Assembly: GCA_036376375.1 (NCBI GenBank)
Contig: DASVAM010000291.1
Span: 1 to 55,811 of the forward strand
DNA length: 55,811 nt
From: Chitinophagaceae bacterium
Lineage (GTDB): Bacteria; Bacteroidota; Bacteroidia; Chitinophagales; Chitinophagaceae
Direction of reading: 5' to 3'
Shown: positions 26,036 through 44,460 of the stretch, one piece after another
How positions within the stretch are numbered: position 1 is the first letter of the stretch
Layout: each line of letters begins with the position of its first letter
Position numbers and translations under genes: made by a program
The notes under the pieces: generated by a model
What the model was told of the DNA's origin: nothing
Database searches by the model: none
The model's input: the letters and a program-made list of their open reading frames with translations, nothing else

Positions 26036-26205
26036 AACAGGTGCTGGTTTTATCAACTAAATATACTATACAATTAGATGACGGCAGAATATCGTTGTTT
26101 CTGCCAAATAGGAAAATCCTCCATCATTATAATAAATACTCACATTTTTGAGGGTAAATAGTGGGGGTACATTTATTGCATAATTCCCTGATTGGCTTCA
26201 CGTAA

Positions 26206-28716
26206 ATGATACGATTGCATATTTGGCTTACATATTTTTTTTTGTTGCTCGCTCTTGCCGGCAATGGCGCCGATATCTATGTCTCGCCAAAAGGTTCCGA
26301 TGCAAATGATGGATCAAAAGAAAAACCGCTTGCCACGGTGTCGGCAGCATTGCGCAAAGCAAGAGAGATGCGCCGGCTAAATGATTCAACTATCAAAAAC
26401 GGGATCCACATCATTTTGCGGGGTGGTGTATATGTATTGAAGGAGACGATCATGATCCGTGCAGAAGATGCGGGCACGGCCGGTAGCCCGACATTCATTG
26501 AAGCGGCCACCGGCGAACAACCGGTGCTGAGCGGTGGTGTGATGATCAGTGGCTGGAAGAAATTATTGTCGCAAAAAACGGGTTTGCCTGCTGCAGCAAG
26601 CGGAAATGTGTGGGTGGCCGATGTGCCGGTGATAAATGGTGAGTTGTTTGAGTTCCGCCAATTGTGGGTGAATGATGTGAAAGCAGTCAGAGCAAAGAGT
26701 GTGAATGGCGACCGGATGTTACGCATATTGAACTGGAGCAAGAAAGATGAAAGCTGCTGGATACCGACTCCGAAATTTCCTGTGTTGGCCAATGCGACGG
26801 GTGTTGAGCTCTTCATTCATCAATGGTGGGCTATTGCGATGCTGCGCATTAAAAAAATGGAAATGCAGGGCGACAGCACTCAATTATTTTTTCATCAGCC
26901 GGAGAGCCGCATACAAAACGAACATCCCTGGCCGGCGCCCTGGCTATCGAAAGAAACAGGTAACTCGGCTTTTTACCTGGTGAATGCATTACAGTTTTTG
27001 GATGAGCCCGGCGAATGGTATTTGGATATTGCTGCACGTAAAATTTATTATTGGCCACGTCGCGGGGAGGATTTGCAAACAGCTTCAGTTGTTGCGCCTT
27101 ATTTGGAAACATTGTTGAAAATAGAAGGAACGATCGATAGACCTGTTCGATTCACTTCATTTGGAGGAATTTCATTTCAGCATACCGGCTGGTTGCGTCC
27201 TTCACATTTTGGGCATGTGCCACACCAGGCAGGAATGTATATGACAGAAGCATACAGGTTGCGTCCGGCAGGCACAAAAGAAAAACCTGGGTTGGATAAC
27301 CAGGCATGGATCGGGAGACCTGCGGCTGCTGTTGAACTAAATTTTGCTGATAATACTGAGTTTGAAAATTGCCGATTTGAACATTTAGCATCAACAGGAT
27401 TAGATTATCATAAAGCTGTTCACAATAATGTGGTGAAAGGATCTTTATTTAAAGACATTGGGGGCAGTGGATTGCTTGCAGGAGTTTATTCTGATCCCGG
27501 GCATGAAATTCATTTGCCCTGCAATCCAACAGATGAAAGAGAGATTTGTGATGGAATGGTAATCGCTAAGAACTTAATTACGGATGCAACAAATGAGGAT
27601 TGGAGTTGCGTCGGAATTGGTTTGGGTTACACCCGCAATAGCCGGGTAGAGCATAATGAGGTAGAGAATGTTTCTTATACCGGCATCAGCATGGGTTGGG
27701 GTTGGACGACTGCTCCGAATGCAATGAAGAATAATAAAATTATTGGCAACAAGATCCATCATTATGGTAAGCATAATTATGATTGCAGTGGGATTTATAC
27801 ATTGAGCGCACAACCGGGTTCTGTTATCAGTGAAAATTATATTGACAGCATTTATAAAGCGCCGTATGCACATCTGCCTTCGCATTGGTTTTATATCTAT
27901 GCTGATGAGGGGTCGTCAGGTTTTACGGTAAAAGATAACTGGACACCTTCAACAAAATATCTCCAAAATGCAAATGGCCCGGGCAATGAATGGAGCAATA
28001 ATGGACCTGGTGCGGCCGAAACCATAAAACTGAGTGCTGGGTTGCAGACTTCTTATCAGTGGTTGTTGGGGGAACGAGCTGCTTCAAAGTTGAATTTGCC
28101 GATCAATGAAGAACATAATGAAGTGATCGGGATGGTAGTGAAAGATGGAAAGCAGATTGATCTTACTAAGCTAAAGGAATTACTTACTCAAAACAATATT
28201 GATGGCGATGCGATCTATCAATGGCAAAATCATTATGTGATCTTTGCTAAAATTGCTGACGTAGGAGTGATGCAGGGAAGAATACAGAATAATTTTCCTG
28301 ACACTGAAGTAAAAGTGTATCACGATCTGTTTTATGAGTATAACAAAAAGAAGCATTGTCCGGATAAATCAGTTGCAAAAGAATGGGAGTATGTCTTATT
28401 GACGGCAAATTTGGTTGCTGATAAAAAATTGCAAAATGAATATTTAGATTACCACGCCACTCAATTTCAGAAATGGCCGGATATAGCAAAAGGATTTTGC
28501 AATGCAGATTTTCAGCAGTTGCTGATTTTTAGAAACGGAAGGCGGTTGGTGTTGGTGATCAGTATTCCAAAGGGGAAGACCCTGGATGAACTGAATCCAA
28601 AGACAACTGAAAATAACCCAAAGATGGTGGAATGGAATAAAATTATGGGAAAATATCAGGAAGGAATACCTGGCACAAAACCTGGCGAAACCTGGGTATT
28701 CTTAAACCCCCTGTAA
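26206..28716 (+). CDS. Secreted right-handed beta-helix enzyme (GH141-/pectate-lyase-fold-like) fused to a C-terminal L-rhamnose-mutarotase (RhaM-like) domain
   Basis: Signal peptide then 'ADIYVSPKGSDANDGSKEKPLATVSAAL', a typical beta-helix N-cap. Repeated 'N..V.N..' coils around residues 400-560. The last ~110 aa ('EYLDYHATQFQKWPDIAKGFCNADFQQLLIFRNGRRLVLVISIP...MVEWNKIMGKYQEG...WVFL') resemble RhaM/mutarotase ferredoxin-like domains. Confidence 0.65.
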   Translation: MIRLHIWLTYFFLLLALAGNGADIYVSPKGSDANDGSKEKPLATVSAALRKAREMRRLNDSTIKNGIHIILRGGVYVLKETIMIRAEDAGTAGSPTFIEAATGEQPVLSGGVMISGWKKLLSQKTGLPAAASGNVWVADVPVINGELFEFRQLWVNDVKAVRAKSVNGDRMLRILNWSKKDESCWIPTPKFPVLANATGVELFIHQWWAIAMLRIKKMEMQGDSTQLFFHQPESRIQNEHPWPAPWLSKETGNSAFYLVNALQFLDEPGEWYLDIAARKIYYWPRRGEDLQTASVVAPYLETLLKIEGTIDRPVRFTSFGGISFQHTGWLRPSHFGHVPHQAGMYMTEAYRLRPAGTKEKPGLDNQAWIGRPAAAVELNFADNTEFENCRFEHLASTGLDYHKAVHNNVVKGSLFKDIGGSGLLAGVYSDPGHEIHLPCNPTDEREICDGMVIAKNLITDATNEDWSCVGIGLGYTRNSRVEHNEVENVSYTGISMGWGWTTAPNAMKNNKIIGNKIHHYGKHNYDCSGIYTLSAQPGSVISENYIDSIYKAPYAHLPSHWFYIYADEGSSGFTVKDNWTPSTKYLQNANGPGNEWSNNGPGAAETIKLSAGLQTSYQWLLGERAASKLNLPINEEHNEVIGMVVKDGKQIDLTKLKELLTQNNIDGDAIYQWQNHYVIFAKIADVGVMQGRIQNNFPDTEVKVYHDLFYEYNKKKHCPDKSVAKEWEYVLLTANLVADKKLQNEYLDYHATQFQKWPDIAKGFCNADFQQLLIFRNGRRLVLVISIPKGKTLDELNPKTTENNPKMVEWNKIMGKYQEGIPGTKPGETWVFLNPL

Positions 28717-28803: not shown

Positions 28804-29883
28804 ATGCAAACAATCGGCATACTAGGATTAGGAGAAGGCAGAAGCACCATGTCAGCAGCATTGCAAAGTAAGAAGCTTACGCTGAAAATTATTTGTGATG
28901 CAAATGAAGAGTTATGCAAACAACGATGTAAAGAATTTGATTTTAAAAATTATACGACGAAATACGATGACATGCTGAAGGATGCTGAGATCGATATCGT
29001 CGCCATTTACACTCCGGATCATTTGCATGCTGAACATATTGCGATGGCCCTGAATGCAGGAAAACATGTCGTTTGCACCAAGCCTTTTATCGATGATCTG
29101 CGCAAGGCAAAAGAATTAATAGCATTGCGAAAGCAAACAGGTAAGAAAGTTTTTGTCGGACAGAGCTCAAGATTTTTTGAACCCTATAAAAGACAGCGTA
29201 AGGATTTCGAAGCTGGGTCGATCGGCGAACTGATCACTGTAGAAAGCCATTATAATGCCGATCACCGCTGGTTCCTTGAAAAAAAATGGGCATTGGAAAA
29301 GACATTTAAATGGCTGTACGGCGGCTTAAGCCACCCTGTTGATTTTATAAGATGGTATATGCCAGACATCGAAGAAGTGATGGGTTATGGGATGATCAGT
29401 GCAAATGGAAAGAAAGCAGGATTAAAAAATGAAGACACGATGCATTTTATTTTAAGGTCCACGGATGGAAGAGTAGCACGGGTTAGCGGAAGTTATACAG
29501 GACCGACACCACCGGTAAAAAGAGATAGTGGCATGACTTGTATATTGAGAGGAACTGAAGGGGCATCGCAGGCCGATTATCATGAACTGCGTTATGCGAT
29601 CACAGACAAAACAGGTGAGGAAAAAATTATTACGTGGGGTGATTCAACGTTGAAATATTATTTCCGGTTTGAAGGACAGAGTCATCATGCCGGAGAGTAT
29701 CAGAATTACCTTGAATATTTTGTTGATTCAATCGAACAGGGCTTTACTGCTTATCCGGATATGAAAGAAGGAATCGGAACAGTGGCTTTGTTGCAGGCTA
29801 TGGATAGAAGCTTACAAACTGGTAAGCCCGTAAATGTTTCTGAAATATTAAATGAATATGGACTTGAACCACTAAGTCACTAA
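28804..29883 (+). CDS. Gfo/Idh/MocA-family NAD(P)-dependent oxidoreductase
   Basis: 'IGILGLGEGRS' Rossmann start. 'DIVAIYTPDHLHAEHIAMALNAGKHVVCTKP' is the canonical family core (EKP-like motif). Confidence 0.85.
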   Translation: MQTIGILGLGEGRSTMSAALQSKKLTLKIICDANEELCKQRCKEFDFKNYTTKYDDMLKDAEIDIVAIYTPDHLHAEHIAMALNAGKHVVCTKPFIDDLRKAKELIALRKQTGKKVFVGQSSRFFEPYKRQRKDFEAGSIGELITVESHYNADHRWFLEKKWALEKTFKWLYGGLSHPVDFIRWYMPDIEEVMGYGMISANGKKAGLKNEDTMHFILRSTDGRVARVSGSYTGPTPPVKRDSGMTCILRGTEGASQADYHELRYAITDKTGEEKIITWGDSTLKYYFRFEGQSHHAGEYQNYLEYFVDSIEQGFTAYPDMKEGIGTVALLQAMDRSLQTGKPVNVSEILNEYGLEPLSH

Positions 29884-29949
29884 GACGCCGGGTGATACAA
29901 AGCCTTCGTGAATCTTTGTGCTTTTGTGTCGTCGTGACGTAAAAAATAA

Positions 29950-31539
29950 ATGAATAAGATCTACGATAAATTAACCGTTCTTGACTTTGCCATTGTTGCA
30001 TTGTACCTGGTTATTTTATTGGTGATTGGGTATATAGCAAGCGTTAAGCAACAAAAGAAAGACGAAACACTATTTCTTGCACAAAACTCACTCAACTGGT
30101 ATAATATCGGCTTCAATATGTGGGGAACGAATGTTGGGCCTTCCTCTTTATTAGCATTTGCAAGTATTGGTTTTACCGCCGGAATTGTTGGCGCCAACTT
30201 TGAATGGTATGCTTTTGTTTTTTTATTGTTGTTGGCAATGGTTTTTGCACCACGATACATGGCAAGTAAAGTCAGCACCATGCCGGAGTATATGGGTCAA
30301 CGATATGGAAAAAGCACACAGGATATTTTAGCAGGGTATGCACTCATAAAGATCCTGATCAGCTGGCTTTCATTGGGCTTGTTTAGCGGTGGCATCCTGG
30401 TCAGGCAAATACTGGGGATCCCGATGTGGCAATCGACCATTGCATTGGTTACTTTTTCAGGCTTGTTCACTTATATGGGCGGACTGAAAGCGATTGCAAA
30501 GGTGAATGTCTTTCAAATGATATTGCTGATCATTGTATCACTCACGTTAACCTATCTGGGGTTAAAAGAACTTGGAGGCATAAAAACCTTAGCCGCTAAA
30601 ACACCTTCAGATTTTTGGAATCTCATCAGGCCGGCATCTGATCCTGGTTATCCATGGCATGCTCTTTTATTAGGTTACCCCGTTTCCGCAGTTGCATTTT
30701 TTTGTACTGACCAAAGTATGGTGCAGTCTGTATTAGGTGCCCGCAATTTAAAACAAGGTCAGCTCGGAGTTAATTTTATCGGCTGGTTAAAAGTATTGGC
30801 ATTACCGATGTTTATTTTGCCGGGTATTATTTGTTATGTGTTATATCCGGACCTTGGCGACGATAAATTAGCCTACATGACCATGGTGACCAGTTTGTTT
30901 CCTTCAGGATTAAATGGTTTGGTGATCTGTGTATTGATTGCTGTGCTGGTCGCCACGATCGGTTCATCTTTAAATGCATTGAGTACCGTTTTCACAAAAG
31001 ATATTTATGTAAATAACATAAACAAAAATGCTACAGTAAAGCAGCAGATCAATGTAGGACGTGTGGTGGTAATTACAGGTTGTGTATTGGCTGTGTTAAT
31101 GGCAATCGCATTGGATAATGTAAAAGGAAAAACATTGTTCGATATCTTTCAATCCATTCTCGGTTATTTGGCCCCACCACTTGCCGTCACTTTTTTGTTG
31201 AGTGTGTTTTGGAAAGGCACTACCAGGCTTGCCGTCAATTTAATATTGTCAGCAGGTTCAGCAGTCAGCCTTTTTGTGGGCATGCTAAACCTGTGGATCC
31301 TGCCACCCGAAAATGAAACGGGTAGGAATACGTGGTGGCCGCATTACTTTTTAGTTTCTTTTTACTTGTTTGTATTTCTGTTTGTCTCCGCCATCACAAT
31401 TTCTTTGCTTGATAAAAATAAAGTGAAGGCAACTATTGAAGAAAATGAATTGCCAAAAACAGATAAGCCGGTGAAAATCCTGTTTGCACTATTGGGACTG
31501 GTCATACTTTCATTATACATCATTTTTAATGGACACTAA
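29950..31539 (+). CDS. Sodium:solute symporter (SSS family, SGLT-like), paralogue 3
   Basis: 529 aa, multi-TM. 'TMPEYMGQRYG' and 'GGLKAIAKVNVFQMI' are typical SSS motifs. Confidence 0.85.
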   Translation: MNKIYDKLTVLDFAIVALYLVILLVIGYIASVKQQKKDETLFLAQNSLNWYNIGFNMWGTNVGPSSLLAFASIGFTAGIVGANFEWYAFVFLLLLAMVFAPRYMASKVSTMPEYMGQRYGKSTQDILAGYALIKILISWLSLGLFSGGILVRQILGIPMWQSTIALVTFSGLFTYMGGLKAIAKVNVFQMILLIIVSLTLTYLGLKELGGIKTLAAKTPSDFWNLIRPASDPGYPWHALLLGYPVSAVAFFCTDQSMVQSVLGARNLKQGQLGVNFIGWLKVLALPMFILPGIICYVLYPDLGDDKLAYMTMVTSLFPSGLNGLVICVLIAVLVATIGSSLNALSTVFTKDIYVNNINKNATVKQQINVGRVVVITGCVLAVLMAIALDNVKGKTLFDIFQSILGYLAPPLAVTFLLSVFWKGTTRLAVNLILSAGSAVSLFVGMLNLWILPPENETGRNTWWPHYFLVSFYLFVFLFVSAITISLLDKNKVKATIEENELPKTDKPVKILFALLGLVILSLYIIFNGH

Positions 31540-31541
31540 TT

Positions 31542-33749
31542 ATGAAGCGGAAAAGAACTTATGAAGTTGTCAGGCGTCAAACGTCAAACGTGAAAAGAAT
31601 TCTTTTCATCGTTTCACTTTTCACCTTTCACATTTCACTGCTTTCGCAAAACGCCACCTGGATCTGGTATCCCGGAGATTATGAAATATGGCTGAGCAAC
31701 CAAATGCAAAACAGGAGAACAGACAGGGAAACGTTTTTTCCAGTATTCTGGAAAATGGATAATCATTATGTCCTGATGGATTTTCATAAAGTGTTTGATC
31801 TGAAAGAACCGGAAGAGGTTTCGATCTATACCGAAGGACAATACAATGTAAAGCTTGATGGAAAACCGTTTGAAGGAACGCCTGCTAAAATAAAGGTACC
31901 TGCCGGTAAACATAAGATCAATATCAAAGTATTTTGCCAGGAAGCCGTGCCATCAATTTACGTTAAAGGAAAAACGATCGTAAGCGATGGAACATGGCTT
32001 ACCACATTTGAAGACAAGGAATGGATCGATGAAACAGGAAAGACATCAGACATTTCAGCTACCAAATGGCTAAATGCAGGTTATTGGAATTTCAGCGATC
32101 CGCTGGCGCCACCATCCAACTTCAAATTACCGGTCACTCCCTTACAAGCAGCCAGCAAACAAGTGAACGATAATTCGATATTGGTTGATTTTGGAAAAGA
32201 GACTTTTGGATTCATCAAACTTCATGGATTGAGGGGTAATGGCAGTCTCACGATTTACTACGGTGAAAGCAGGGAGGAAGCATTGAGTAAAGAGGGCGCG
32301 GTCACAGTGGATAAACTGATCATCGAGAATTCAACTGCCAAAGATTCTATTATGCCATTATCAAAAGCGTTTCGTTATGTGAATATTGTGAGAGAAGGCA
32401 ATGTGCATTTTGAAGATGTATCCATGTTGTATGAGTATGCGGATATTCCGGACAACGGAAGTTTTATTTGTAACGATGAAGAGATAAATAAGATCTATGA
32501 TGTCGCGAAATACACGTTGCATTTAAGTACAAGAGAATTTTTCATTGATGGTATCAAGAGAGATCGCTGGGTGTGGAGCGGTGATGCCTACCAAAGTTAT
32601 TTGATGAATTATTACCTGATGAATGATAATCGCACGGTAACAAGCACGATGTATGCATTGCGCGGTAAAGATCCCGTTACAGGACATATCAATACGATCA
32701 TGGATTATACATTTTACTGGTTCCTGGGCATCTATGATTATTATTTATACAGCGGTGATAAAACGTTTATCCAGCAGAACTATGACCGCATGAAAAGCCT
32801 GATGGATTATGTGCTGGGAAGAAGAAATAAGAATGGATTGCTGGAAGGATTACCTGGTGATTGGATATTCATTGACTGGGCTGCCGGACTAAGCAAGAAA
32901 GGTGAGGTAAGTTTTGAACAATTACTGTTTGCAAGAAGTTTGGAAACAATGGCGCTCTGCGCCGGTATTGTAAATGATAAACAGGCTGCCTCACAATACA
33001 CAGCATTAGCTGCCGATCTGAGGAAAAAGTTATTTACTATTTACTGGAATCAGAAGAAGCAGGCATTGGTGCATAGTCGTGTTGATGGTAAACAAACAGA
33101 TAATGTAACCCGCTACTCAAACATGTTTGCTATTTTCTTTGATTATTTTAATGCACAGCAAAAACAAGCAGTAAAGAAGTCTGTGCTGCTCAACGATAAT
33201 ATTCAGAAGATCACCACCCCCTATATGAGATTTTATGAATTAGAGGCTTTGTGTGCACTGGGTGAACAGAACTATGTGTTGAAAGAAATGAAAGATTACT
33301 GGGGTGGTATGCTGAAATTGGGCGCCACGAGTTTTTGGGAAGAATATAATCCCACAAAGAAAGGAGCGGAGCACTATGCCATGTATGGAAGAGAATTTGG
33401 AAAAAGTCTATGTCATGCATGGGGAGCCAGCCCGATCTATTTGTTAGGTAAATACTATCTTGGCGTAAAGCCAACATCTGCTGGTTACAACACCTATCTT
33501 GTTGAACCAAACCTGGGCGGCCTGCAATGGATGGAAGGGAAAGTGCCCACTCCTGGTGGAAATATTGAATTAAGCATTAGTACTAAGGAAATAAAGATAA
33601 CGGGAGCAGCGGGAACAGGAACTCTTCGTTTCAAAAGCAAAACAAAACCTGAAATCAGTGCCGGCACCATGATTAGCAAAGGCAATAATCTTCATGAATT
33701 GAAAATTGAAAAAGGGAAATCTTATACAATTAAGTATGAATTGAATTAG
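31542..33749 (+). CDS. GH78-related alpha-L-rhamnosidase-like six-hairpin glycosidase
   Basis: 'ATWIWYPGDYEIW' N-terminal motif, 'IKRDRWVWSGDAYQS' (counterpart of the GH78 'RERLGWTGD' region) and 'FWEEYNP'. The hydrophobic N-terminus is encoded by a repeat. Confidence 0.65.
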   Translation: MKRKRTYEVVRRQTSNVKRILFIVSLFTFHISLLSQNATWIWYPGDYEIWLSNQMQNRRTDRETFFPVFWKMDNHYVLMDFHKVFDLKEPEEVSIYTEGQYNVKLDGKPFEGTPAKIKVPAGKHKINIKVFCQEAVPSIYVKGKTIVSDGTWLTTFEDKEWIDETGKTSDISATKWLNAGYWNFSDPLAPPSNFKLPVTPLQAASKQVNDNSILVDFGKETFGFIKLHGLRGNGSLTIYYGESREEALSKEGAVTVDKLIIENSTAKDSIMPLSKAFRYVNIVREGNVHFEDVSMLYEYADIPDNGSFICNDEEINKIYDVAKYTLHLSTREFFIDGIKRDRWVWSGDAYQSYLMNYYLMNDNRTVTSTMYALRGKDPVTGHINTIMDYTFYWFLGIYDYYLYSGDKTFIQQNYDRMKSLMDYVLGRRNKNGLLEGLPGDWIFIDWAAGLSKKGEVSFEQLLFARSLETMALCAGIVNDKQAASQYTALAADLRKKLFTIYWNQKKQALVHSRVDGKQTDNVTRYSNMFAIFFDYFNAQQKQAVKKSVLLNDNIQKITTPYMRFYELEALCALGEQNYVLKEMKDYWGGMLKLGATSFWEEYNPTKKGAEHYAMYGREFGKSLCHAWGASPIYLLGKYYLGVKPTSAGYNTYLVEPNLGGLQWMEGKVPTPGGNIELSISTKEIKITGAAGTGTLRFKSKTKPEISAGTMISKGNNLHELKIEKGKSYTIKYELN
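31584..31638 (+). repeat. 'gtgaaaag/cttttcac' repeat element inside the 5' end of the GH78-like gene
   Basis: 'gtcaaacgtgaaaagaattcttttcatcgtttcacttttcacctttcacatttcac' contains the palindrome 'gtgaaaagaattcttttcat'. A 33-nt stretch matches 33813-33845 with 2 mismatches. Confidence 0.75.
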
Positions 33750-33754
33750 TGTGT

Positions 33755-35809
33755 ATGAAAAAAAAGAATATCCAACCTGAAGAGTCAAATGTGAAATTGA
33801 ACACAGTTCTTGTCATCGTTTCACTTTTCACTTTTCACTTTTCACTTATTGCGCAGAATGGTTTGGTAAATACGCATGCGAGCCCACATGCCAGGCTGAA
33901 TAGCGTTGGCATCGGCGATGTTCAATGGACAAAAGGATTCTGGGCAGAACGGTTTGCAGTTTGTCGTGATGCCATGGTACCGGCGTTGTGGAAGATCTAC
34001 ACAAGCAAGGATATGTGCTATTCATTTCAAAATTTCAGGATCGCGGCGGGATTGGATACGGGCAGGTTTCGTGGCCCATCATTTCATGACGGAGATTTCT
34101 ATAAAACACTGGAAGCAGTAGCGGCGATGTATGCTTCCACAAAGGATAAAAAGCTTGAAGCATGGATGGATGAAGCAATTGATGTGATCGGTAAGGCGCA
34201 AAAAAGCGATGGATATATCTACACAAAGAATATCATTGAACAAAAGAAAACCGGTAAAGAAAAAATGTTCGATGACCAGTTGAGTTTTGAAGCCTACAAT
34301 TTTGGGCACCTGATGACGGCTGCTTGTGTTCATTACCGTGCAACCGGTAAAACAAGCTTGCTGGAAATTGCAAAGAAAGCCGCTGATTTCTTAATTGGTT
34401 TTTATAATACCGCCACACCTGAACAGGCGCGAAATGCAATTTGTCCATCACATTATATGGGACTGATCGAATTGTACAGAACAACAAATGAAAAAAAGTA
34501 TTTAACACTCGTAAACAAACTGATCGATATAAGAGGAACAGTAGAAGGAACAGATGATAACAGCGACCGGGAACCATTCCGCGATATGGATAAAGTGGTA
34601 GGTCATGCGGTAAGAGCAAATTATTTATTTGCCGGTGTTGCTGATGTGTATGCAGAAACCGGCGATGTGACGTTGCTGAATACATTGAATAAACTCTGGG
34701 ATAATGTGATCAATACAAAAATGTATGTGACAGGAGGGTGCGGTGCGTTGTATGATGGCGTTTCTGTAGATGGTACTTCTTACAAGCCGGACACGGTTCA
34801 GAAGGTTCATCAGTCTTATGGAAGAGATTTTCAATTACCCAATTTCAGTGCCCATAATGAAACCTGCGCCAATATTGGCAATGTACTTTGGAACTGGAGG
34901 ATGTTATTGTTGACGGGCGATACAAAGTATGCAGATATTGTTGAGCTGGCCTTATATAATAGTGTCCTGAGCGGAATAGATATGAAGGGAACAAAATTCT
35001 TCTATACAAACCCACTTGCTGCGTCTGCAGATTATCCTTATCATTTGCGCTGGGAAGGGGGAAGGACGGAATATATCAGTAAGTCAAATTGTTGCCCACC
35101 GAATACGGTACGCACCATCGCTGAAGTCAATAATTATTTCTACAGCATCGGAGAAAAAGGATTGTATATTAACATGTATGGTGGCAATTCGCTTAATACA
35201 GAATTGCATGATGGATCTGACATAAAATTAGAGCAAACGACTAACTATCCCTGGGATGGGAAAATTGTTATTACGATAAATGAGAACACGACATCACCCA
35301 CTTCTATTTTTTTAAGAATTCCGGGATGGTGTAAGAATGCAGACATTAGAATAAATGGCAGAAATGTCTCCGAGGCGGTTCGGTTACACACCTACAATGA
35401 ATTAAAACGCTCATGGAAAAAGGGTGACAGAATTGAATTGATCCTGGATATGCCGGCGACTTTAATTGAAAGCAACCCACTGGTGGAAGAAACAAAAAAT
35501 CGAGTCACTGTAAAGAAAGGGCCAATAGTGTATTGCCTGGAGAGTGCTGATTTGCCGGGTCAAAACGTTTTTGATGTGATAGTTCCGGCATCGATCAAGC
35601 TGCAAGCTGTATCAATGAAAATCGCTGATGGTAAGGTGATAGCATTAACAGGACAGGCAAAATTGTTGCAAAGCATCAACTGGAAAAATAGTTTATACAA
35701 GGAATTAAATACAAATACCAAACCTGTAACATTAAAACTCATTCCGTATTACGCCTGGGCAAACCGGGGTAAAACTGATATGACAGTTTGGTTAAATGTG
35801 CAGAGGTAA
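33755..35809 (+). CDS. Glycoside hydrolase family 127 (beta-L-arabinofuranosidase / aceric-acid-hydrolase family, DUF1680)
   Basis: 'GHAVRANYLFAGVADVY', 'HNETCANIGNVLW' and 'SNCCPPNTVRTIA' (Cys-rich Zn/catalytic motifs of GH127). The ATG at 33755 is preferred over the GTG at 33749. Confidence 0.85.
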   Translation: MKKKNIQPEESNVKLNTVLVIVSLFTFHFSLIAQNGLVNTHASPHARLNSVGIGDVQWTKGFWAERFAVCRDAMVPALWKIYTSKDMCYSFQNFRIAAGLDTGRFRGPSFHDGDFYKTLEAVAAMYASTKDKKLEAWMDEAIDVIGKAQKSDGYIYTKNIIEQKKTGKEKMFDDQLSFEAYNFGHLMTAACVHYRATGKTSLLEIAKKAADFLIGFYNTATPEQARNAICPSHYMGLIELYRTTNEKKYLTLVNKLIDIRGTVEGTDDNSDREPFRDMDKVVGHAVRANYLFAGVADVYAETGDVTLLNTLNKLWDNVINTKMYVTGGCGALYDGVSVDGTSYKPDTVQKVHQSYGRDFQLPNFSAHNETCANIGNVLWNWRMLLLTGDTKYADIVELALYNSVLSGIDMKGTKFFYTNPLAASADYPYHLRWEGGRTEYISKSNCCPPNTVRTIAEVNNYFYSIGEKGLYINMYGGNSLNTELHDGSDIKLEQTTNYPWDGKIVITINENTTSPTSIFLRIPGWCKNADIRINGRNVSEAVRLHTYNELKRSWKKGDRIELILDMPATLIESNPLVEETKNRVTVKKGPIVYCLESADLPGQNVFDVIVPASIKLQAVSMKIADGKVIALTGQAKLLQSINWKNSLYKELNTNTKPVTLKLIPYYAWANRGKTDMTVWLNVQR
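33785..33845 (+). repeat. Second copy of the 'gtgaaa...tttcacttttcac' element inside the 5' end of the GH127 gene
   Basis: 'gtcaaatgtgaaattg...tcatcgtttcacttttcacttttcacttttcac'. Encodes 'SNVK...VIVSLFTFHFSL', compared with 'SNVK...FIVSLFTFHISL' in the upstream gene. Confidence 0.75.
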
Positions 35810-35878
35810 ACTCACTGAATCGAAGTACAATGAGAACTGGTAATGAAGAAACTTTAAAAAATAAGGACTCTAAAAGTC

Positions 35879-35911
35879 GCTCTCCTTTGGAGAGGGGTTT
35901 GGGGTGAGGTC
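35879..35911 (+). repeat. 'GGAGAGGGG..GGGGTGAGGT' element, copy b, ending 1 nt before the ATG
   Basis: 'gctctcctttggagaggggtttggggtgaggtc' with hairpin 'ctctcc ttt ggagag'. Confidence 0.7.
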
Positions 35912-37207
35912 ATGGAAAGGATTACAGCAACATATTTTATTGAAACACCTTTTGCTCCAGAAAAAGCAGCGGCAGTTCTTTCGGGTGAACAATCATCGGG
36001 CACTTTTGTTGCTGTGCCGGGAGAAACTTTGGAATTAAAAGAACGCTTTGCGGCACGGGTTGAGTCTGTTGAGCATTTAGAAACGGTCAATGAACCAGCG
36101 ATTCCGGGAGCAAATAGTAATGATGACAAATATTGCCGGGCCATTGTAAAGGTTTCATGGAGTATTGAAAATTTTGGACACAATCTTCCTGTTTTGATCT
36201 CGACATTACAGGGAAACCTTTATGAGATCGCCCAGTTCACGGGATTGAAGTTGATGGACATTGATTTACCTGGTTCGTTTGGCAAAGCGTATAAAGGACC
36301 TGCATTTGGCATTGACGGTTGCAGAAAACTAACAGGGGTCTATGACCGGCCGTTGATAGGGACGATCATTAAACCATCAATTGGTTTATCGCCGGAACAA
36401 ACTGCTGATATTGTAAAAACACTGGCTGAAGCAGGAATTGATTTTGTAAAAGATGATGAACTTCTTTCCTCATCTGCTAATTCAAATTTCAATGACCGCG
36501 TCGATGCGGTCATGAAGGTGATAAATGCTCATGCTGATAAAACCGGAAAAAAAGTGATGTATGCATTTAATATCAGCGGCGAGATAGATGAAATGTTGCA
36601 ACGCTATGAAAAGATCAAAAAAAGCGGTGCTACCTGTGCCATGGTTAGCATTAACAGTGTCGGATTATCCGGGGTAAAAAAGATAGCTGACCAACGACAA
36701 TTGGCAATTCATGGACACCGTAATGGTTGGGGAATGCTGACCAGGCATCCGTTGTTGGGAATTGATTTCAAAGCCTATCAAAAAATATGGCGGTTAGCTG
36801 GTGTTGATCAACTGCATGTAAATGGCATTCAAAATAAATTCTGGGAGAGCGATGACAGTGTAGTGGCTTCCATTGAAGCATGCCTGGCAAAAATGTATGA
36901 TCATAAAACAGTAATGCCGGTTATTTCATCCGGTCAATGGGGAGGACAGGCTTTTGAAACCTGGAGAAGAACAAAAACTGTTGATCTATTATATATGGCA
37001 GGCGGTGGAATTATGGCGCACCCAATGGGAGCAGCGGCGGGAGTAACGGCCTTGCAGCAGGCATGGGCGGCAGCCGTAGCCGGATTGAGTCTGGAAGAAG
37101 CGGCAAAGCAGTATAAAGAGTTTGGTAAATCAGTTGAAAACTTCAGCCCCCTAAATCCCCCGAAGGGGGACTTGGGGAAGATTCAAGCAAATCGCAATGA
37201 TAATTGA
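35912..37207 (+). CDS. RuBisCO-like protein (form IV RLP), not a carboxylase
   Basis: 'GTIIKPSIGLSP' (the K175 equivalent is kept, the K177 position is Ser), 'GIDFVKDDE' (KDDE active-site motif), 'IHGHRNG', 'AGGGIMAHPMG'. No small subunit or CBB genes are present. Followed by a DUF1537 kinase. Confidence 0.85.
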   Translation: MERITATYFIETPFAPEKAAAVLSGEQSSGTFVAVPGETLELKERFAARVESVEHLETVNEPAIPGANSNDDKYCRAIVKVSWSIENFGHNLPVLISTLQGNLYEIAQFTGLKLMDIDLPGSFGKAYKGPAFGIDGCRKLTGVYDRPLIGTIIKPSIGLSPEQTADIVKTLAEAGIDFVKDDELLSSSANSNFNDRVDAVMKVINAHADKTGKKVMYAFNISGEIDEMLQRYEKIKKSGATCAMVSINSVGLSGVKKIADQRQLAIHGHRNGWGMLTRHPLLGIDFKAYQKIWRLAGVDQLHVNGIQNKFWESDDSVVASIEACLAKMYDHKTVMPVISSGQWGGQAFETWRRTKTVDLLYMAGGGIMAHPMGAAAGVTALQQAWAAAVAGLSLEEAAKQYKEFGKSVENFSPLNPPKGDLGKIQANRNDN

Positions 37208-38526
37208 GCAAGCATAAAAAAATATTACTCGCATTTTATGGTGATGATTTCACCGGTAGCACTGACGCACTGGAATTTATCAGTAAGGCCGGTGCAAGTA
37301 CTTTATTGTTCACTGAAACACCAACAAAAGAGCAATTGGACACTTTTCCTAAGCTGGATGCATTTGGAGTAGCTGGTAAAACAAGGTCATTGTCATCGGT
37401 TGAAATGGAAAAGATATTAATACCTGCTCTTAAAGAGATGAAATCAACAGGGGCAAGACATGTTCATTATAAGATTTGTTCAACATTTGATTCATCGCCA
37501 GTTGTTGGAAGTATTGGTAAGGCTATCGATTGTGGAGCTGAAATTTTTAATAATGATGTAATTCCGGTGATTGGGGGTATGCCCTCATTGGGTCGTTATT
37601 GCCTGTTTGGGAATTTGTACGCAAGAATGGGGATAGGAAGCAATGGACATATTTACCGGTTGGACAGGCATCCATCCATGAGTAAACATCCTGTGACACC
37701 GATGAATGAAGCGGACCTGAGAATTCACCTGGGCAAACAGACCAGTAGAAGAATTGGATTAATTGACAATGTACAGCAGAGAAAAAGAAAAAAGGAATGG
37801 CTTGATAATATTACTGATGAGAAGGTAGTATTGCTTGATACTATGAACGAAAATGAGTTGCTGAAAATTGGTGAATGGTTAAATACACAACAGAAAAAGC
37901 AAGGCCAATTATTCTCAGTTGGTGGTTCAGGAATTGAGATGGCTTTGGGCAAGTGTTGGAACAGGATTGAAGTATTGAAACCCCGAACTAAATGGAAGAA
38001 AATTCATAAAGCAACGCCATTATTAGTCATATCAGGCAGTTGTTCGCCTGTTACAAAAAATCAAATTGGCTATGCGGTTGCGGAAGGATTTATTGAAGTC
38101 CCATTAGAAATGGAGATATTTCAAGGAGACTCAGGAGATGGATTTTCAGTTGGAGCCGACCTCAACAAGATTTTATCGGCTCTCAGACAAAACAAAAGTG
38201 TTATTATACATACAGGCAATATTCGTGATATAGAACAACCAGGGTCATCTCGTATCCTGGGGAAAGCATTAGGATCAATTGCAAAAAAAGTTTGTGAAGA
38301 GACCAAATTAAAAAGAGTAGTAATTGCAGGTGGTGATACGAGTAGCTATGCTGCAAGAGCCATGGAAATTGAGGCAGTGGAAATGATTGCGCCATTAGTA
38401 AGTGGTGCTCCATTATGCAAAGCTTATTCAAAAAATAAATCGATCGATGGATTAGAAGTGAATTTCAAAGGAGGGCAGGTGGGAGGTGAGGATTATTTTG
38501 GGGTGATGATGCGTGGAGCATTATAA
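37204..38526 (+). CDS. Four-carbon/branched acid-sugar kinase (DUF1537 family), copy 2
   Basis: TTG start overlapping the RLP stop. 'ILLAFYGDDFTGSTD' N-terminal motif, 440 aa. Pairing with an RLP matches the 3-oxo-isoapionate kinase context. Confidence 0.8.
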   Translation: MSKHKKILLAFYGDDFTGSTDALEFISKAGASTLLFTETPTKEQLDTFPKLDAFGVAGKTRSLSSVEMEKILIPALKEMKSTGARHVHYKICSTFDSSPVVGSIGKAIDCGAEIFNNDVIPVIGGMPSLGRYCLFGNLYARMGIGSNGHIYRLDRHPSMSKHPVTPMNEADLRIHLGKQTSRRIGLIDNVQQRKRKKEWLDNITDEKVVLLDTMNENELLKIGEWLNTQQKKQGQLFSVGGSGIEMALGKCWNRIEVLKPRTKWKKIHKATPLLVISGSCSPVTKNQIGYAVAEGFIEVPLEMEIFQGDSGDGFSVGADLNKILSALRQNKSVIIHTGNIRDIEQPGSSRILGKALGSIAKKVCEETKLKRVVIAGGDTSSYAARAMEIEAVEMIAPLVSGAPLCKAYSKNKSIDGLEVNFKGGQVGGEDYFGVMMRGAL

Positions 38527-38536
38527 GAAATAAAAA

Positions 38537-38599
38537 TCTCACAGATTTCACAGATGTTCACTGAAATCTAATCTGTATAGATCCGTGTAATCTGTGAGA
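38537..38599. repeat. Palindromic 'cacagat/atctgtg' element directly after the kinase stop
   Basis: 'tctcacagat' (38537-38546) pairs perfectly with 'atctgtgaga' (38590-38599). Internal 'cacagat/atccgtg' units match the units in the GxxExxY cassette arms. Confidence 0.65.
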
Positions 38600-38615
38600 G
38601 TAAAATTTGAACAGT

Positions 38616-38768
38616 CTTTCCTTTCGCTCAGGATGACAAAAGAAATATAAGGAATAGGTAAATAGCGAACCAAAGCACAATAGTGCGACCCCGGGTTCCG
38701 CAAACTTCGTCGGCTCGTCGGGGCAGGCACAAGGGACGATGATAGTAGCGCAAAAGCTGGTAACATAA
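38616..38768 (+). repeat. Intergenic repeat module, copy B (long form)
   Basis: 'ctttcctttcgctcaggatgacaaaag...aatagcgaaccaaagcacaatagtgcgaccccgggttccgcaaacttcgtcggctcgtcggggcaggcacaagggacgatgatagtagcg...ggtaacataaaa'. Confidence 0.75.
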
Positions 38769-38793
38769 AAACTAAAAACATTCAATATAAAAC

Positions 38794-39456
38794 ATGTCAC
38801 AAAAAACTTTAGGCTTAGTTCATACATCGGCGACATTGGTGCCCGTATTTGCAGAGCTGTGCAATAAGTACCTGCCAAATGTAAAAACTTTCAACATCGT
38901 TGACGATAGTTTGATCAGGAACACTATTGCATCCGGGCAATTGACAGCTGACACATCCAGAAGAGTGGTGAACTATGCCGGGTCGGCACAGGATGCAGGC
39001 GCCGACTATATTCTATTTACCTGTTCATCGATCGGACCGGCAGTGGAAGCGGCCGCGGGAATGACAAAAGTGCCGGTGTTGAGAGTGGATCAGCCAATGG
39101 CAGACAAAGCTGTGCAAATAGGAAAACGCATCGGCGTGATCGCAACATTGCCGACAACCTTAGATCCTACAAGTGACCTGGTGAAACGACGTGCGGCGGC
39201 GGCAGGAAAAGAAATTGTGCTGGTCTCAAAACTATGCGAAGGAGCATTTGATGCATTAATGACCGGTGATGCGGCAACACACGATAAGAAAGTTGGCGAT
39301 GCATTGAAAGAATTGTCTAAAGAAGTTGATGTGATCGTTTTGGCACAGGCATCCATGGCAAGAGTGGTGGATACATTCAGCGAAGCTGATAAGAAAGTAC
39401 CGATACTCGCAAGCCCACCGATCGCCATGGAGTATTTGTCAACCATTTTAAAGTAA
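38794..39456 (+). CDS. Asp/Glu/hydantoin-racemase-superfamily protein, apparently single-Cys (arylmalonate-decarboxylase/isomerase-like)
   Basis: 220 aa. 'GLVHTSATLVP' start and 'ILFTCSSIGP' (first catalytic Cys context). The second-Cys position reads 'VLAQASMA', with no Cys. Confidence 0.55.
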   Translation: MSQKTLGLVHTSATLVPVFAELCNKYLPNVKTFNIVDDSLIRNTIASGQLTADTSRRVVNYAGSAQDAGADYILFTCSSIGPAVEAAAGMTKVPVLRVDQPMADKAVQIGKRIGVIATLPTTLDPTSDLVKRRAAAAGKEIVLVSKLCEGAFDALMTGDAATHDKKVGDALKELSKEVDVIVLAQASMARVVDTFSEADKKVPILASPPIAMEYLSTILK

Positions 39457-39466
39457 CCCGACCATC

Positions 39467-39497
39467 TTTCCCATGGAGAGGGGCAGGGGTGAGGTCT
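39467..39497 (+). repeat. 'GGAGAGGGG..GGGGTGAGGT' element, copy c, ending 2 nt before the ATG
   Basis: 'ctttcccatggagaggggcaggggtgaggtct'. The GTG at 39489 inside the element is in frame with the downstream ORF. Confidence 0.7.
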
Positions 39498-40814
39498 ATG
39501 ATCAAACTAAGTAAAATATCCTTAATTGTAAGCGGCATAGCAGTAATCCTGTTAATTATTGGACTCGGTATGCAACAGCAAATCTTATGGAAACCGGCTG
39601 CACTGATAACAGCTGTCAGTTTAGCGATTGGTTTGCGTGCAGTGCCTCCATTAAAAGGATATCAATACACCGCATGGATCATTAGCGCAGTCGTGGCAGG
39701 CATGATCTTTCCCGATGCATTTAAAAATTGGGGTGGATTAAACCTGCGGGATAAGACATTAATACTTGTCATCATACAGTTAGTGATGTTTGGCATGGGC
39801 ACACACATGAGCTTAAAAGACTTTAGTGGCATTGCAACAACCGGTAAAGGCGTTATGGTCGGCTTGTTTTGTCATTTCAGCATAATGCCATTGATGGGAT
39901 TGCTGTTGACAAAGGTTTTTCATTTTGAACCGGAAATTGCAGCCGGTATAATTTTAATTGGCAGTTGCAGCAGCGGGCTTGCCTCAAATGTTATGGTGTA
40001 CCTCGCAAGAGCAAACCTGGTGTTATCGGTTATCGTCACAGCAATGGCAACATTGATCGCTCCGCTGATGACACCGTTGCTGATGAAGACACTTGCCGGA
40101 ACGTTGATAGAAGTAAAGTTCATCGACATGATGATCGAGATAATTAAAATTGTACTTGTTCCTATTGGCGCTGCCTTGTTGCATGATTATATGAAAAGAG
40201 CAACGGATGCTCAATTAAAGAAAGTTTACCGCGTGTCTGGAATCGCTGTCATATGGTTATTTGTTGTTGTTTTCTGGCAGGGAATTATTACGGATAAGGC
40301 GTTACAACAATCCGTTACTCTTTCGGGTTTCTTTGCCGGTGCCGTGATCGCCGGTGTCGTCTATCATTATTTATATGATCGTTTTCCAAAGCTTGATAAC
40401 ATCATGCCGCTGATATCCATGTTCGGCATTATCTATTTTACAACAGTGACTACGGCTGCAGGGCGGGAGAACCTGGTGAAGGTTGGCGTATTATTATTTA
40501 TTGCATCGGTTATTCATAACGCTGCTGGCTATTTTTTTGGTTATTCGCTCAGTCGCTTGTTTGGTATCGATAAGAATTCGAGTCGCACCATTGCCTTTGA
40601 GGTCGGATTGCAGAATGGAGGCATGGCATCGGGTATTGCGGGTAGTATGGGCAAGCTGGGCACGGTTGGTTTGGCTGCGGCAGTGTTCAGTCCCTGGATG
40701 AATATAAGCGGAAGTATTCTGGCGAATTACTGGAGTAGGAGAGCTGTGGCCCCCAGCCCCCCGAAGGGAGAACTTAGAGTTGAAGAGACTGAAAGCGTTC
40801 AGGCATCGGCTTAA
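39498..40814 (+). CDS. Bile acid:sodium symporter (BASS/SBF) family organic-anion carrier
   Basis: 'MFGMGTHMSLKDF', 'IMPLMGLLL' and 'GSCSSGLASNVMVYLARAN' are typical BASS motifs. The C-terminal tail 'APSPPKGELRVEE...' is repeat-derived. Confidence 0.8.
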   Translation: MIKLSKISLIVSGIAVILLIIGLGMQQQILWKPAALITAVSLAIGLRAVPPLKGYQYTAWIISAVVAGMIFPDAFKNWGGLNLRDKTLILVIIQLVMFGMGTHMSLKDFSGIATTGKGVMVGLFCHFSIMPLMGLLLTKVFHFEPEIAAGIILIGSCSSGLASNVMVYLARANLVLSVIVTAMATLIAPLMTPLLMKTLAGTLIEVKFIDMMIEIIKIVLVPIGAALLHDYMKRATDAQLKKVYRVSGIAVIWLFVVVFWQGIITDKALQQSVTLSGFFAGAVIAGVVYHYLYDRFPKLDNIMPLISMFGIIYFTTVTTAAGRENLVKVGVLLFIASVIHNAAGYFFGYSLSRLFGIDKNSSRTIAFEVGLQNGGMASGIAGSMGKLGTVGLAAAVFSPWMNISGSILANYWSRRAVAPSPPKGELRVEETESVQASA

Positions 40815-40862: not shown

Positions 40863-44375
<3,513 letters not shown>

Positions 44376-44388
44376 GTTTTTGAACCAT

Positions 44389-44460
44389 GGAGACACGAAG
44401 ACACGAAGATGCACAATGATTCTCTCCGTGTTGCTCTGTGTTCTATGTGCCTCTGTGATC
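44389..44460. repeat. 'cacgaag / ctctgtg' palindromic repeat spanning the start of the next gene
   Basis: 'ggagacacgaagacacgaagatgcac...ctctccgtgttgctctgtgttctatgtgcctctgtgatc'. The right arm encodes the signal-peptide core 'ILSVLLCVLCASVI'. Confidence 0.6.

Follow-up and report, generated by a model that had tools for sequence, protein, structure and literature searches.

The glycosidic breakdown of rhamnogalacturonan-II (RG-II) has been mapped, while the fate of its rare monosaccharides is far less clear. A 55,811-nucleotide stretch of DNA from a Chitinophagaceae bacterium (GenBank assembly GCA_036376375.1, contig DASVAM010000291.1, analysed over its full length and called the window here) raises the question for one of these sugars, L-aceric acid: once a hydrolase has freed it, which genes would allow it to be consumed? 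Directly downstream of the gene for a predicted aceric acid hydrolase of glycoside hydrolase family 127 (GH127), the window encodes four proteins on the same strand, namely a RuBisCO-like protein (RLP), a DUF1537 kinase, a racemase-like protein of the Asp/Glu racemase family (RAC), and a carrier of the bile acid:Na+ symporter (BASS) family. We found that these four genes, at 35912-40814, make up the conserved unit, which is self-contained and mobile, and not the block of eight genes at 28804-40814 that a first-pass annotation, made from the sequence alone, had singled out. We propose that this cassette serves L-aceric acid catabolism through import of the anion, isomerization to a 2-ketose, phosphorylation, and cleavage by the RLP. 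Our confidence in that assignment is evenly balanced, and the cassette is the best candidate so far for bacterial aceric acid consumption. The hydrolase and cassette genes, with families assigned to the open reading frames (ORFs) by Pfam and NCBIfam profile scores, are as follows.

33749..35809, + strand: GH127 aceric acid hydrolase (BT1003-type); NF049879, 1166 bits against a cut-off of 950
35912..37207, + strand: RLP; PF00016, 226 bits, and PF02788, 29.6 bits
37204..38526, + strand: DUF1537 kinase; SBD_N, 178 bits, and NBD_C, 96 bits
38794..39456, + strand: RAC, Asp/Glu racemase family; PF01177, 88 bits (cut-off 31)
39489..40814, + strand: BASS/SBF carrier; PF01758, 111.6 bits (cut-off 24.3)

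A scan for the RLP in one genome per GTDB species returned 489 relatives, and the best 80 loci were examined by searching them for the window proteins; counts that depend on neighboring sequence are restricted to loci with enough of it on the relevant flank, which gives denominators of 65, 70, or 76. The RLP is 74-88% identical across the 80 loci, which belong to three orders: Chitinophagales, Cytophagales (Arcicella, Flectobacillus, Hymenobacter, Dyadobacter, Runella, Pontibacter, and Echinicola), and Sphingobacteriales (Mucilaginibacter and Pedobacter). The kinase gene lies directly 3' of the RLP gene in 69 of 76 loci, the RAC and BASS genes are both found in 64 of 65, and kinase, RAC, and BASS genes occur together in 61 of 65. 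The association of the RAC-BASS pair with the RLP and kinase, which the first-pass annotation had marked as something to check, is thus a general one. Even in Dyadobacter, where RAC and BASS are inverted relative to RLP and kinase, the pair is intact, and the BASS gene always adjoins the RAC gene. With dozens of genomes showing this arrangement, chance juxtaposition can be dismissed.

The same loci tie the cassette to the hydrolase. In 42 of 70 loci a GH127 gene stands directly 5' of the RLP gene and shares its strand; another 10 of the 70 have one at some other place in the locus. All 30 of the GH127 neighbors sampled match the aceric acid hydrolase model NF049879 and no other. The window's own GH127 scores 1166.1 bits on this model, above its equivalog cut-off, covers model positions 3-656 of 657, and shows the catalytic, middle, and C-terminal domains by Pfam. 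The adjacency of GH127 had been read in the first-pass annotation as fitting aceric acid, and these results bear that out. The protein begins with a hydrophobic, signal-like stretch, LNTVLVIVSLFTFHFSLIAQ, of a kind absent from the RLP, the kinase, RAC, and the Gfo/Idh/MocA oxidoreductase (GFO) encoded farther upstream; we propose that the GH127 enzyme would release free L-aceric acid outside the cytoplasm.

Approached from the side of the hydrolase, a metagenome scan based on a GH127 alignment yielded 80 loci, 67 of them with downstream sequence. The RLP gene directly follows GH127 in 21 of these, lies elsewhere in the locus in one, and in one more the kinase, RAC, and BASS genes are upstream. 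Occurrence of the RLP falls with the identity of the GH127, from 17 of 27 loci at 70% or more to 4 of 20 at 60-69% and 1 of 20 below 60%. At least ten metagenomic loci keep the order GH141, GFO, sodium:solute symporter (SSS), GH78, GH127, GH2, GH137 while missing exactly the RLP, kinase, RAC, and BASS genes. Because such syntenic islands differ by precisely these four genes, the cassette is discrete and optional, and its preferred insertion site is immediately 3' of the aceric acid hydrolase gene. Among the plasmids of PLSDB, that of Rufibacter tibetensis is the sole carrier of an RLP of this clade (75% identity) and a RAC (67%); the same replicon bears, about 146 kb away, the only GH127 in PLSDB at 55% identity or better (58.9%). 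A plasmid of the alphaproteobacterium Croceibacterium (locus L083, 8175-12528) has a GH127 gene immediately 5' of RLP and kinase genes, all overlapping or abutting; its GH127 is only a distant relative of aceric acid hydrolase, and this may be a second, independent pairing of GH127 with RLP and kinase.

An RLP gene followed by that of a DUF1537 kinase recalls the D-apionate branch of apiose catabolism, in which, as far as it is cited in PMC6302742 and PMC12994016 (Carter et al. 2018), OiaK acts with the decarboxylase OiaX in Agrobacterium radiobacter K84 or with a transcarboxylase/hydrolase in Xanthobacter autotrophicus. The window RLP has the domains and residues of a Form IV protein: it combines RuBisCO N-terminal and catalytic domains, keeps the K201-D203-E204 motif, and has lost K177, a residue needed for carboxylation of ribulose bisphosphate; neither small-subunit nor Calvin-cycle genes are seen among annotated window ORFs of at least 150 residues. 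The motifs GIDFVKDDE and GGGIMAHP are both present, as first annotated, and IIKPSIG aligns with the canonical IKPKLG such that K175 is retained and K177 is replaced by Ser, the substitution likewise given there; for residue numbers we take the usual RuBisCO numbering to apply. The Ser is not peculiar to this protein: it is common to all non-OiaX relatives examined, with Ala in Rhizobium etli OiaX, and we rejected it as a clade marker. By motif alignment the clade retains E60, T65, N123, K175, K201, D203, E204, H294, R295, H327, K334, S379, and G403/404; in the window RLP H298 is replaced by Trp and G381 by Gln. R. etli OiaX, beyond its Ala, has Gly in place of N123 and Gln in place of H327. 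Because N123 and H327 are kept and the Ser at K177 is shared, the active site is closer to that of the non-OiaX group than to that of OiaX.

Profile scores and phylogeny place the RLP near OiaX and yet outside it. It scores 509.5 bits on the OiaX model, below the equivalog cut-off of 700, where the R. etli RLP that PGAP names OiaX reaches 785.5, and the two proteins are about 50% identical. Identity is 50-55% to unnamed RLPs from RLP-DUF1537 pairs of Cupriavidus, Haloterrigena, Azospirillum, Rhizobium sp. Pop5, Chimaeribacter, and Croceibacterium; the OiaX model gives 407-516 bits to those of Cupriavidus, Haloterrigena, Croceibacterium, and Rhizobium sp. Pop5, a range similar to the score of the window RLP. 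The methionine-salvage models (MtnW) give the window RLP only 149-188 bits. In a neighbor-joining tree the Bacteroidota RLPs form a tight monophyletic clade apart from both OiaX and the proteobacterial and haloarchaeal group, and at 13 positions the clade has an invariant residue that none of the seven outgroup sequences shares, S84, Q100, N190, Y232, I284, and I321 being among these. Nearest named relatives are from Chitinophagaceae (Lacibacter, Flavihumibacter, Ferruginibacter; 84-89% identity), and in a representative library clustered at 50% identity, where the clade is not resolved, the best representative is only 52% identical. PGAP gives the RLP, the kinase, and RAC generic names only. 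The expected affinity to apionate-type proteins therefore stands in so far as OiaX and OiaK are the best-scoring named models and MtnW is not, but the placement is that of a separate clade beneath the OiaX cut-off. Non-OiaX RLPs with ApnO-like, enolase, and pyruvate kinase neighbors are probably of the transcarboxylase/hydrolase (OiaT) type, a label that, for Cupriavidus, Haloterrigena, and Azospirillum, derives from those neighboring genes alone.

Many proteobacterial and haloarchaeal RLP-DUF1537 pairs, such as those at loci L084-L088, carry only generic names, and their neighbors vary (SDR dehydrogenases, TRAP, MFS or KDG permeases, LysR, enolase, pyruvate kinase). Several have no ApnO-like gene; such pairs may act on different substrates.

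The kinase is the second DUF1537 protein of the window, as had been stated; the first is encoded at 18380-19477. The first-pass annotation was also right that the RLP stop codon (TGA, 37205-37207) overlaps the TTG start of the kinase gene (37204-37206), a four-nucleotide overlap of sequence TTGA, and no alternative in-frame start exists 5' of the conserved YGDDFTGS motif, so the kinase is predicted to be translationally coupled to the RLP. SBD_N and NBD_C both exceed their Pfam thresholds, and YGDDFTGS contains the DDFTG motif of the family. Against named models the kinase scores 393.9 bits for OiaK (NF042436, cut-off 700), 167 for OtnK (cut-off 350), and 64 for DtnK, and is thus OiaK-like by score while lying outside the curated equivalog. 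Falling below the OiaK cut-off is weak evidence, because the model is narrow: the kinase adjoining R. etli OiaX also fails it, with 475.7 bits.

Does the window hold the genes that would make apionate? The first-pass annotation had seen in the GFO a counterpart of ApnO, the D-apionate oxidoisomerase, and thus a member of the module. We rejected this candidate: the GFO gene is found, at any position, in 30 of the 80 loci, persists in at least ten islands that have no cassette, and encodes a protein only 23% identical to the Gfo protein of R. etli, so it is not co-conserved with the cassette. The SSS gene is found in 34 of 80 loci, in each case with GFO, and a GH78-like gene in 37 of 80; because GFO and SSS both persist in islands without the cassette, we do not count them as members of it, and the GH78-like gene, kept in such islands too, is likewise outside it. 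That ApnO is a Gfo/Idh/MocA protein, as stated in that annotation, is itself probably wrong. Besides TIM-like and RpiB-like genes, the R. etli OiaX cluster has genes for an ABC transporter, a Gfo/Idh/MocA protein, and a 275-residue protein with a 6-phosphogluconate dehydrogenase C-terminal domain. The last of these is a repeated neighbor of RLP and kinase, found in the clusters of R. etli, Cupriavidus, and Haloterrigena, and because of that recurrence we infer that it is likely ApnO. Searches by tblastn (E<=1e-5) with the ApnO-like, TIM-like, and RpiB-like proteins of R. etli found no match in the window or the 80 loci. No GH140-like gene, the type expected of an apiosidase, occurs in the window, as the first-pass annotation would have it, and only 4 of the 80 loci have one; the companion statement of that annotation, that apiose dehydrogenase and lactonase are missing, holds to the extent that neither was recognized among annotated window ORFs and recurrent neighbors, no search having been aimed at them.

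The resemblance to the D-apionate branch accordingly has limits that can be set side by side. Shared are the RLP gene with its apparently translationally coupled kinase gene, OiaX and OiaK as best named models, an RG-II-derived sugar, and a predicted substrate of the branched 2-hydroxy-3-oxo acid type that ends in CH2OH. On the other side, the window RLP and kinase score below the cut-offs, the RLP is in its own clade at 50% identity to OiaX, homologues of the ApnO-like, TIM-like, RpiB-like, enolase, and pyruvate kinase genes of OiaX- and OiaT-type clusters are absent from the window, RAC and BASS take the place of ABC or TRAP transporters, and the genes are tied to that of an aceric acid hydrolase.

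RAC is a racemase by fold and a departure from racemases in its active site. Its AlphaFold2 model (pLDDT 92) matches racemases by Foldseek with probability 1.0; TM scores, normalized to query length, are 0.66-0.79 for the racemases among the top 30 matches, and identity to solved structures is 13-20%. It shares the fold of the PF01177 superfamily (arylmalonate decarboxylase, maleate isomerase, and Asp/Glu/hydantoin racemases), and the Cys in its conserved TCSS turn, Cys77, aligns with the first catalytic Cys of aspartate racemase. In place of the second catalytic Cys it has Gln185, in the motif LAQASM, invariant in 74 locus orthologues and in distant homologues, so that the fold is present and the pair of catalytic thiols is not. 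When RAC is aligned with homologues from Croceibacterium, Rhizobium, Deinococcus, Haladaptatus, Caballeronia, and Rhodococcus, H10-T11, C77-S78, D99, A117-T118, H163-D164, Q185, S187-M188, and S207-P208 prove invariant; His10-Thr11 and His163-Asp164 are peculiar to this family. The protein had been called single-Cys. It has three Cys residues, and the description is correct for the canonical catalytic position, where Cys77 alone is conserved family-wide. We considered Cys148 as a relocated second catalytic thiol and rejected it for lack of conservation across the family, which leaves one conserved thiol. An arylmalonate decarboxylase type was likewise rejected: that enzyme, we take it, has Gly at the first and Cys at the second catalytic position, and the pattern in RAC is reversed, with Cys first and Gln second.

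The genomic linkage of RAC is to acid-sugar kinases, in contrast to the amino acid metabolism of PF01177 racemases. Its homologues on Deinococcus, Rhodococcus, and Haladaptatus plasmids are 40-46% identical (L091, 8992-12055; L094, 3584-7859; L092, 4669-7642), and those clusters appear to be uncharacterized acid-sugar pathways that share a pairing of racemase-fold protein and kinase. The settings of RAC homologues outside Bacteroidota are these.

Deinococcus taeanensis: NAD(P) oxidoreductase, RAC, DUF1537 kinase, class II FBP aldolase
Rhodococcus antarcticus: MR/MLE dehydratase, RAC, DUF1537 kinase, class II FBP aldolase, sugar ABC transporter
Haladaptatus: DUF1537 kinase / class II aldolase, RAC, Gfo genes
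Caballeronia: lactonase, oxidoreductase, and sugar ABC transporter, then RAC
Croceibacterium: RAC and MFS transporter, about 33 kb from GH127-RLP-kinase on the same plasmid

Because relatives of RAC accompany DUF1537 kinases in clusters unrelated to this one, RAC is most simply read as an enzyme that works on the acid sugar after import and ahead of the kinase, and to the label racemase/decarboxylase-like we prefer probable isomerase acting before the kinase. That RAC lies beside the transporter when split from RLP and kinase fits a first cytoplasmic step that prepares the substrate of the kinase. We found no paper in the literature searched on the RAC family or on racemase-family proteins with acid-sugar kinases.

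The BASS carrier belongs to its family by PF01758, and scores below the cut-offs of the named models nearest to it: 201.6 bits for PanS, a ketopantoate/pantoate carrier (cut-off 400), and 185 bits for TIGR00841 (cut-off 326). We propose that it imports an anionic sugar. A carrier of this anion family fits an acidic sugar and not neutral apiose, because its nearest model transports the branched hydroxy acid pantoate.

How the four proteins could consume aceric acid follows from its structure. L-aceric acid is 3-C-carboxy-5-deoxy-L-xylose, OHC-CH(OH)-C(OH)(COO-)-CH(OH)-CH3, and the substrate of OiaK, 3-oxo-isoapionate, is HOCH2-CO-C(OH)(COO-)-CH2OH. In the proposed route the secreted GH127 would free L-aceric acid from RG-II side chain B, the BASS carrier would take up its anion, and RAC, by way of its single Cys, would move the carbonyl from C1 to C2, converting aldose to ketose. 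The product, HOCH2-CO-C(OH)(COO-)-CH(OH)-CH3, would be 3-oxo-isoapionate with one additional methyl group. The DUF1537 kinase would phosphorylate the new primary alcohol, and the RLP would act on the resulting beta-keto acid phosphate as OiaX or OiaT does on 3-oxo-isoapionate 4-phosphate. It might decarboxylate it to CO2 and a 5-deoxypentulose 1-phosphate, the latter to be cleaved to dihydroxyacetone phosphate (DHAP) and acetaldehyde by an aldolase that is encoded elsewhere, or it might, by transcarboxylation and hydrolysis, yield 3-phosphoglycerate and L-lactate. The second option fits the lack of aldolase, enolase, and pyruvate kinase genes, because no further dedicated enzyme would be needed, and we count retention of N123, H327, and K334 in the RLP as fitting it too. 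A single conserved Cys suits a one-base 1,2-proton shift, and aceric acid needs no redox step to reach its ketose isomer, in accord with a cassette that has no dehydrogenase. The broadest form of the proposal, in which this is the first L-aceric acid pathway, RAC is a racemase-fold isomerase shifting the carbonyl of acid sugars, and the RLP turns the ketose phosphate into 3-phosphoglycerate and L-lactate by decarboxylating, recarboxylating, and hydrolyzing it with no further dedicated enzymes, we regard as unlikely when all its parts are taken together; it would bring two new enzyme activities, and RAC would then stand for a larger family associated with DUF1537 kinases in several phyla. The literature searched, including a 2026 RG-II preprint and a 2026 review, yielded no aceric acid catabolic route and nothing relevant on RLPs in RG-II contexts.

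Several considerations weigh against aceric acid as the substrate. The assignment, together with the roles of the proteins and their products, draws on gene adjacency and chemical analogy, and the adjacency has exceptions: 18 of 70 cassette loci have no GH127 gene within 10 kb, only 22-23 of the 67 aceric-acid-hydrolase-like loci have the cassette within 6 kb, three Flectobacillus loci (L044, 11348-14131; L045, L047) have no DUF1537 kinase within 10 kb, and the Croceibacterium GH127, at 87 bits, was rejected as an orthologue of the aceric acid hydrolase. The carboxylate-bearing carbon of aceric acid carries no proton, so canonical racemase chemistry cannot apply, and we know of no aldose-ketose isomerase in the Asp/Glu racemase superfamily. 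No class II aldolase, FBA, OtnC, enolase, or pyruvate kinase is encoded in the window or the 80 loci, and with neither aldolase nor enolase at hand the product of the RLP is not fixed by gene content. The aceric acid hydrolase, the subsequent rhamnosidase, and the apiosidase share one AceA-Rha-Api fragment as substrate; their genes would be expected to cluster, so adjacency cannot fully separate aceric acid from apiose, which is freed from the same oligosaccharide. A GH140-like gene, moreover, adjoins RAC and the transporter in four Dyadobacter loci (L057, 8543-10135; also L062, L068, L080) and in Croceibacterium (L089, 6166-7752); the protein has the Pfam domains Apiosidase, DUF5060, and DUF5605, and the Dyadobacter and Croceibacterium versions are 43% identical. 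These last points, the top scores for OiaX and OiaK, and the Gfo/Idh/MocA gene of the R. etli OiaX cluster all speak for the apionate branch in a new setting, where the cassette would use 3-oxo-isoapionate derived from D-apiose, with apionate made elsewhere or by GFO and the ApnO rearrangement supplied by RAC. We consider that quite unlikely. Both enzymes score below the equivalog cut-offs, the RLP clade is separate, neither the window nor any of the 80 loci has an ApnO-like gene, GFO is missing from 50 of the 80 and behaves independently of the cassette, a GH140-like gene is lacking in the window and seen in only 4 of the 80, the required NAD-dependent oxidation is beyond a racemase-fold protein and no cassette gene encodes a dehydrogenase, and the carrier is of an anion family where apiose is neutral. 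Between the two options that the first-pass annotation left standing, the conserved cassette behind GH127, the anion-family carrier, and the absence of apionate-forming enzymes nearby favor aceric acid.

A further rival substrate is another small acid sugar from RG-II or pectin breakdown, such as a four-carbon tetronate (L-threonate or D-erythronate) or a fragment of Dha or Kdo. It would be imported by BASS and oxidized by a dehydrogenase encoded elsewhere, RAC would convert the 2-oxo to the 3-oxo acid, and phosphorylation by the kinase and decarboxylation by the RLP would then give DHAP, with RAC a non-homologous OtnI and the RLP a non-homologous OtnC. The model is the L-threonate/D-erythronate pathway of LtnD/DenD, OtnI, OtnK, and OtnC, reportedly established by Zhang et al. 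in 2016, which likewise runs through an isomerase giving a 3-oxo acid, a DUF1537 kinase, and a final decarboxylase or lyase. OtnI, which we take to belong to the TIM-barrel hydroxypyruvate isomerase family, and OtnC, presumably a class II aldolase, have no homologues in the window, and the match of the kinase to OtnK is weak. (The enzyme names are those used where PMC12994016 treats this pathway.) In its favor, RAC homologues occur with DUF1537 kinases and class II aldolases, one of them OtnC-like, in Haladaptatus, Deinococcus, and Rhodococcus; the RAC fold lends itself naturally to proton abstraction at a carbon alpha to a carboxylate or ketone; DHAP as product would explain the lack of a downstream enzyme; and the cassette loci without a nearby GH127 would be no surprise. 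We nonetheless hold it to be unlikely, if a real possibility: it requires a dehydrogenase that the cassette does not supply, the kinase scores far higher on OiaK than on OtnK or DtnK, the insertion behind GH127 in 42 of 70 loci is left unexplained, and the window already has a separate DtnK/PdxA-type module upstream. That there is no common pathway at all, RLP-kinase and RAC-BASS being unrelated units brought together in polysaccharide utilization islands or the RLP serving methionine or 5-deoxyribose salvage, seems very improbable. The pairs can be inverted, as in Dyadobacter, or some 33 kb apart, as in Croceibacterium, and Flectobacillus has a BT_1020-like beta-propeller/sialidase-like protein and a GH43 encoded between RLP and RAC; but the four genes stay together in 61 of 65 loci from three orders and are gained or lost jointly, the RLP scores far lower on MtnW than on OiaX, and no methionine-salvage genes are nearby.

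The island around the cassette, judged by its gene content, is one for RG-II degradation. The first-pass annotation had given eight ORFs at 28804-40814, all on the + strand, and the coordinates and families of all of them (GFO, SSS, GH78-like, GH127, RLP, DUF1537, RAC, and BASS) were confirmed; its assignment of a glycan island to RG-II agrees with the GH141, GH78-like, GH127, GH2, GH137-like, and GH106 content. Apart from the hydrolase and cassette listed above, the island includes the following.

26206..28716, + strand: GH141-like enzyme fused to an L-rhamnose mutarotase (RhaM) domain; GH141_M, 238 bits, and rhaM, 41 bits
28804..29883, + strand: GFO, predicted to be cytoplasmic, by Pfam; best NCBIfam match iolG, 110 bits against a cut-off of 355
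29950..31539, + strand: SSS symporter, paired with GFO; PF00474, 166 bits
31542..33749, + strand: GH78-like alpha-L-rhamnosidase; Bac_rhamnosid-like_N, 274.8 bits, and 6-hairpin domain, 105.5 bits
40872..44375, + strand: GH2, downstream RG-II-type glycosidase
44347..45537, + strand: GH137-like; residues 3-358 of the NF049877 model (beta-D-glucuronidase/beta-L-arabinofuranosidase) matched
45577..48888, + strand: GH106, downstream RG-II-type glycosidase
48885..51182, + strand: DUF5703 protein, downstream block
51354..52292, + strand: AraC-family regulator at the end of the island; HTH_AraC and AraC_binding domains

Additional GH2, GH78, and DUF3826 genes lie in the upstream part, and the AraC-family protein at 51354-52292 is a possible regulator of the island. 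Rfam and tRNA scans of the window gave no matches; scans for promoters and terminators showed no excess over shuffled controls, the promoter scan having used a sigma-70 consensus that is unfit for Bacteroidota. The Bacteroides thetaiotaomicron RG-II locus is said to have been described by Ndeh et al. in 2017, with BT1001 as GH78, BT1002 as GH141, and BT1003 as GH127; the window has the same three neighbors, GH141, GH78-like, and GH127, followed by GH2, GH137-like, and GH106. The window island differs in embedding cytoplasmic catabolic modules; genes for an RLP, a DUF1537 kinase, a racemase-like protein, or a BASS carrier are not known from the B. thetaiotaomicron locus. BT1003 and side chain B are among the subjects described in bioRxiv preprint 10.64898/2026.03.13.711244.

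A second cytoplasmic module occupies 11341-21113. It encodes a BNR/GH33-like sialidase-family protein, an SSS symporter, a DHDPS-like aldolase, an Fe-dependent alcohol dehydrogenase, a second DHDPS-like aldolase, a PdxA-like dehydrogenase (TIGR00557, 336 bits), a short DUF1537 kinase of 365 residues whose DtnK match is confined to the N-terminal part, and another SSS. It could serve catabolism of Kdo or Dha, with an aldolase giving pyruvate and a tetruronate, then reduction, the kinase, and a PdxA-type decarboxylating dehydrogenase giving DHAP. The stretch from the Fe-dependent alcohol dehydrogenase to the SSS comes straight after the RLP cassette in one locus (L064). Next to this module, at 21100-23520, is encoded an 806-residue protein with a weakly acetyl-xylan-esterase-like N-terminal region and a xylose-isomerase-like TIM barrel; homologues stand 5' of GH141 in three Niastella loci. 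The single-strand island is broken at 24679-26056 by a gene for an SOS-response-associated peptidase (SRAP) and a small opposite-strand ORF, which divide the upstream catabolic module from the block running from GH141 to DUF5703.

Neighbors of the cassette differ in other genera. Nine Mucilaginibacter and Pedobacter loci (L061, 2401-9994; L049, L059, L066, L067, L070, L071, L073, L074) have a distinct gene set 5' of the RLP, encoding two SBP-like proteins, a family III CoA-transferase, next to which lies an ORF of about the same size that has no annotation, a distant Gfo/Idh/MocA oxidoreductase, and an MFS transporter. An enolase-superfamily (MR/MLE) gene follows BASS at L026 (14659-15738) and is found in ten loci in total, mostly of Chitinophagaceae and two of Arcicella; the window does not have it.

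The cassette and its linkage to GH127 are solid, and aceric acid as the substrate is a well-motivated hypothesis that could go either way. A defined set of genes would make aceric acid catabolism directly testable. If the hypothesis is true, aceric acid would be the third branched plant sugar known to be handled by RLPs, after apiose (Carter et al. 2018, as cited in PMC6302742) and hamamelose (Kim et al. 2018, as listed in PMC10176493), and a first function would be at hand for a distinct racemase-fold subfamily, which accompanies DUF1537 kinases in Bacteroidota, Deinococcota, Actinomycetota, Pseudomonadota, and haloarchaea. Presence or absence of the cassette between otherwise syntenic RG-II islands could then account for the division of soil and gut Bacteroidota into consumers and secretors of aceric acid, a matter that touches on cross-feeding.

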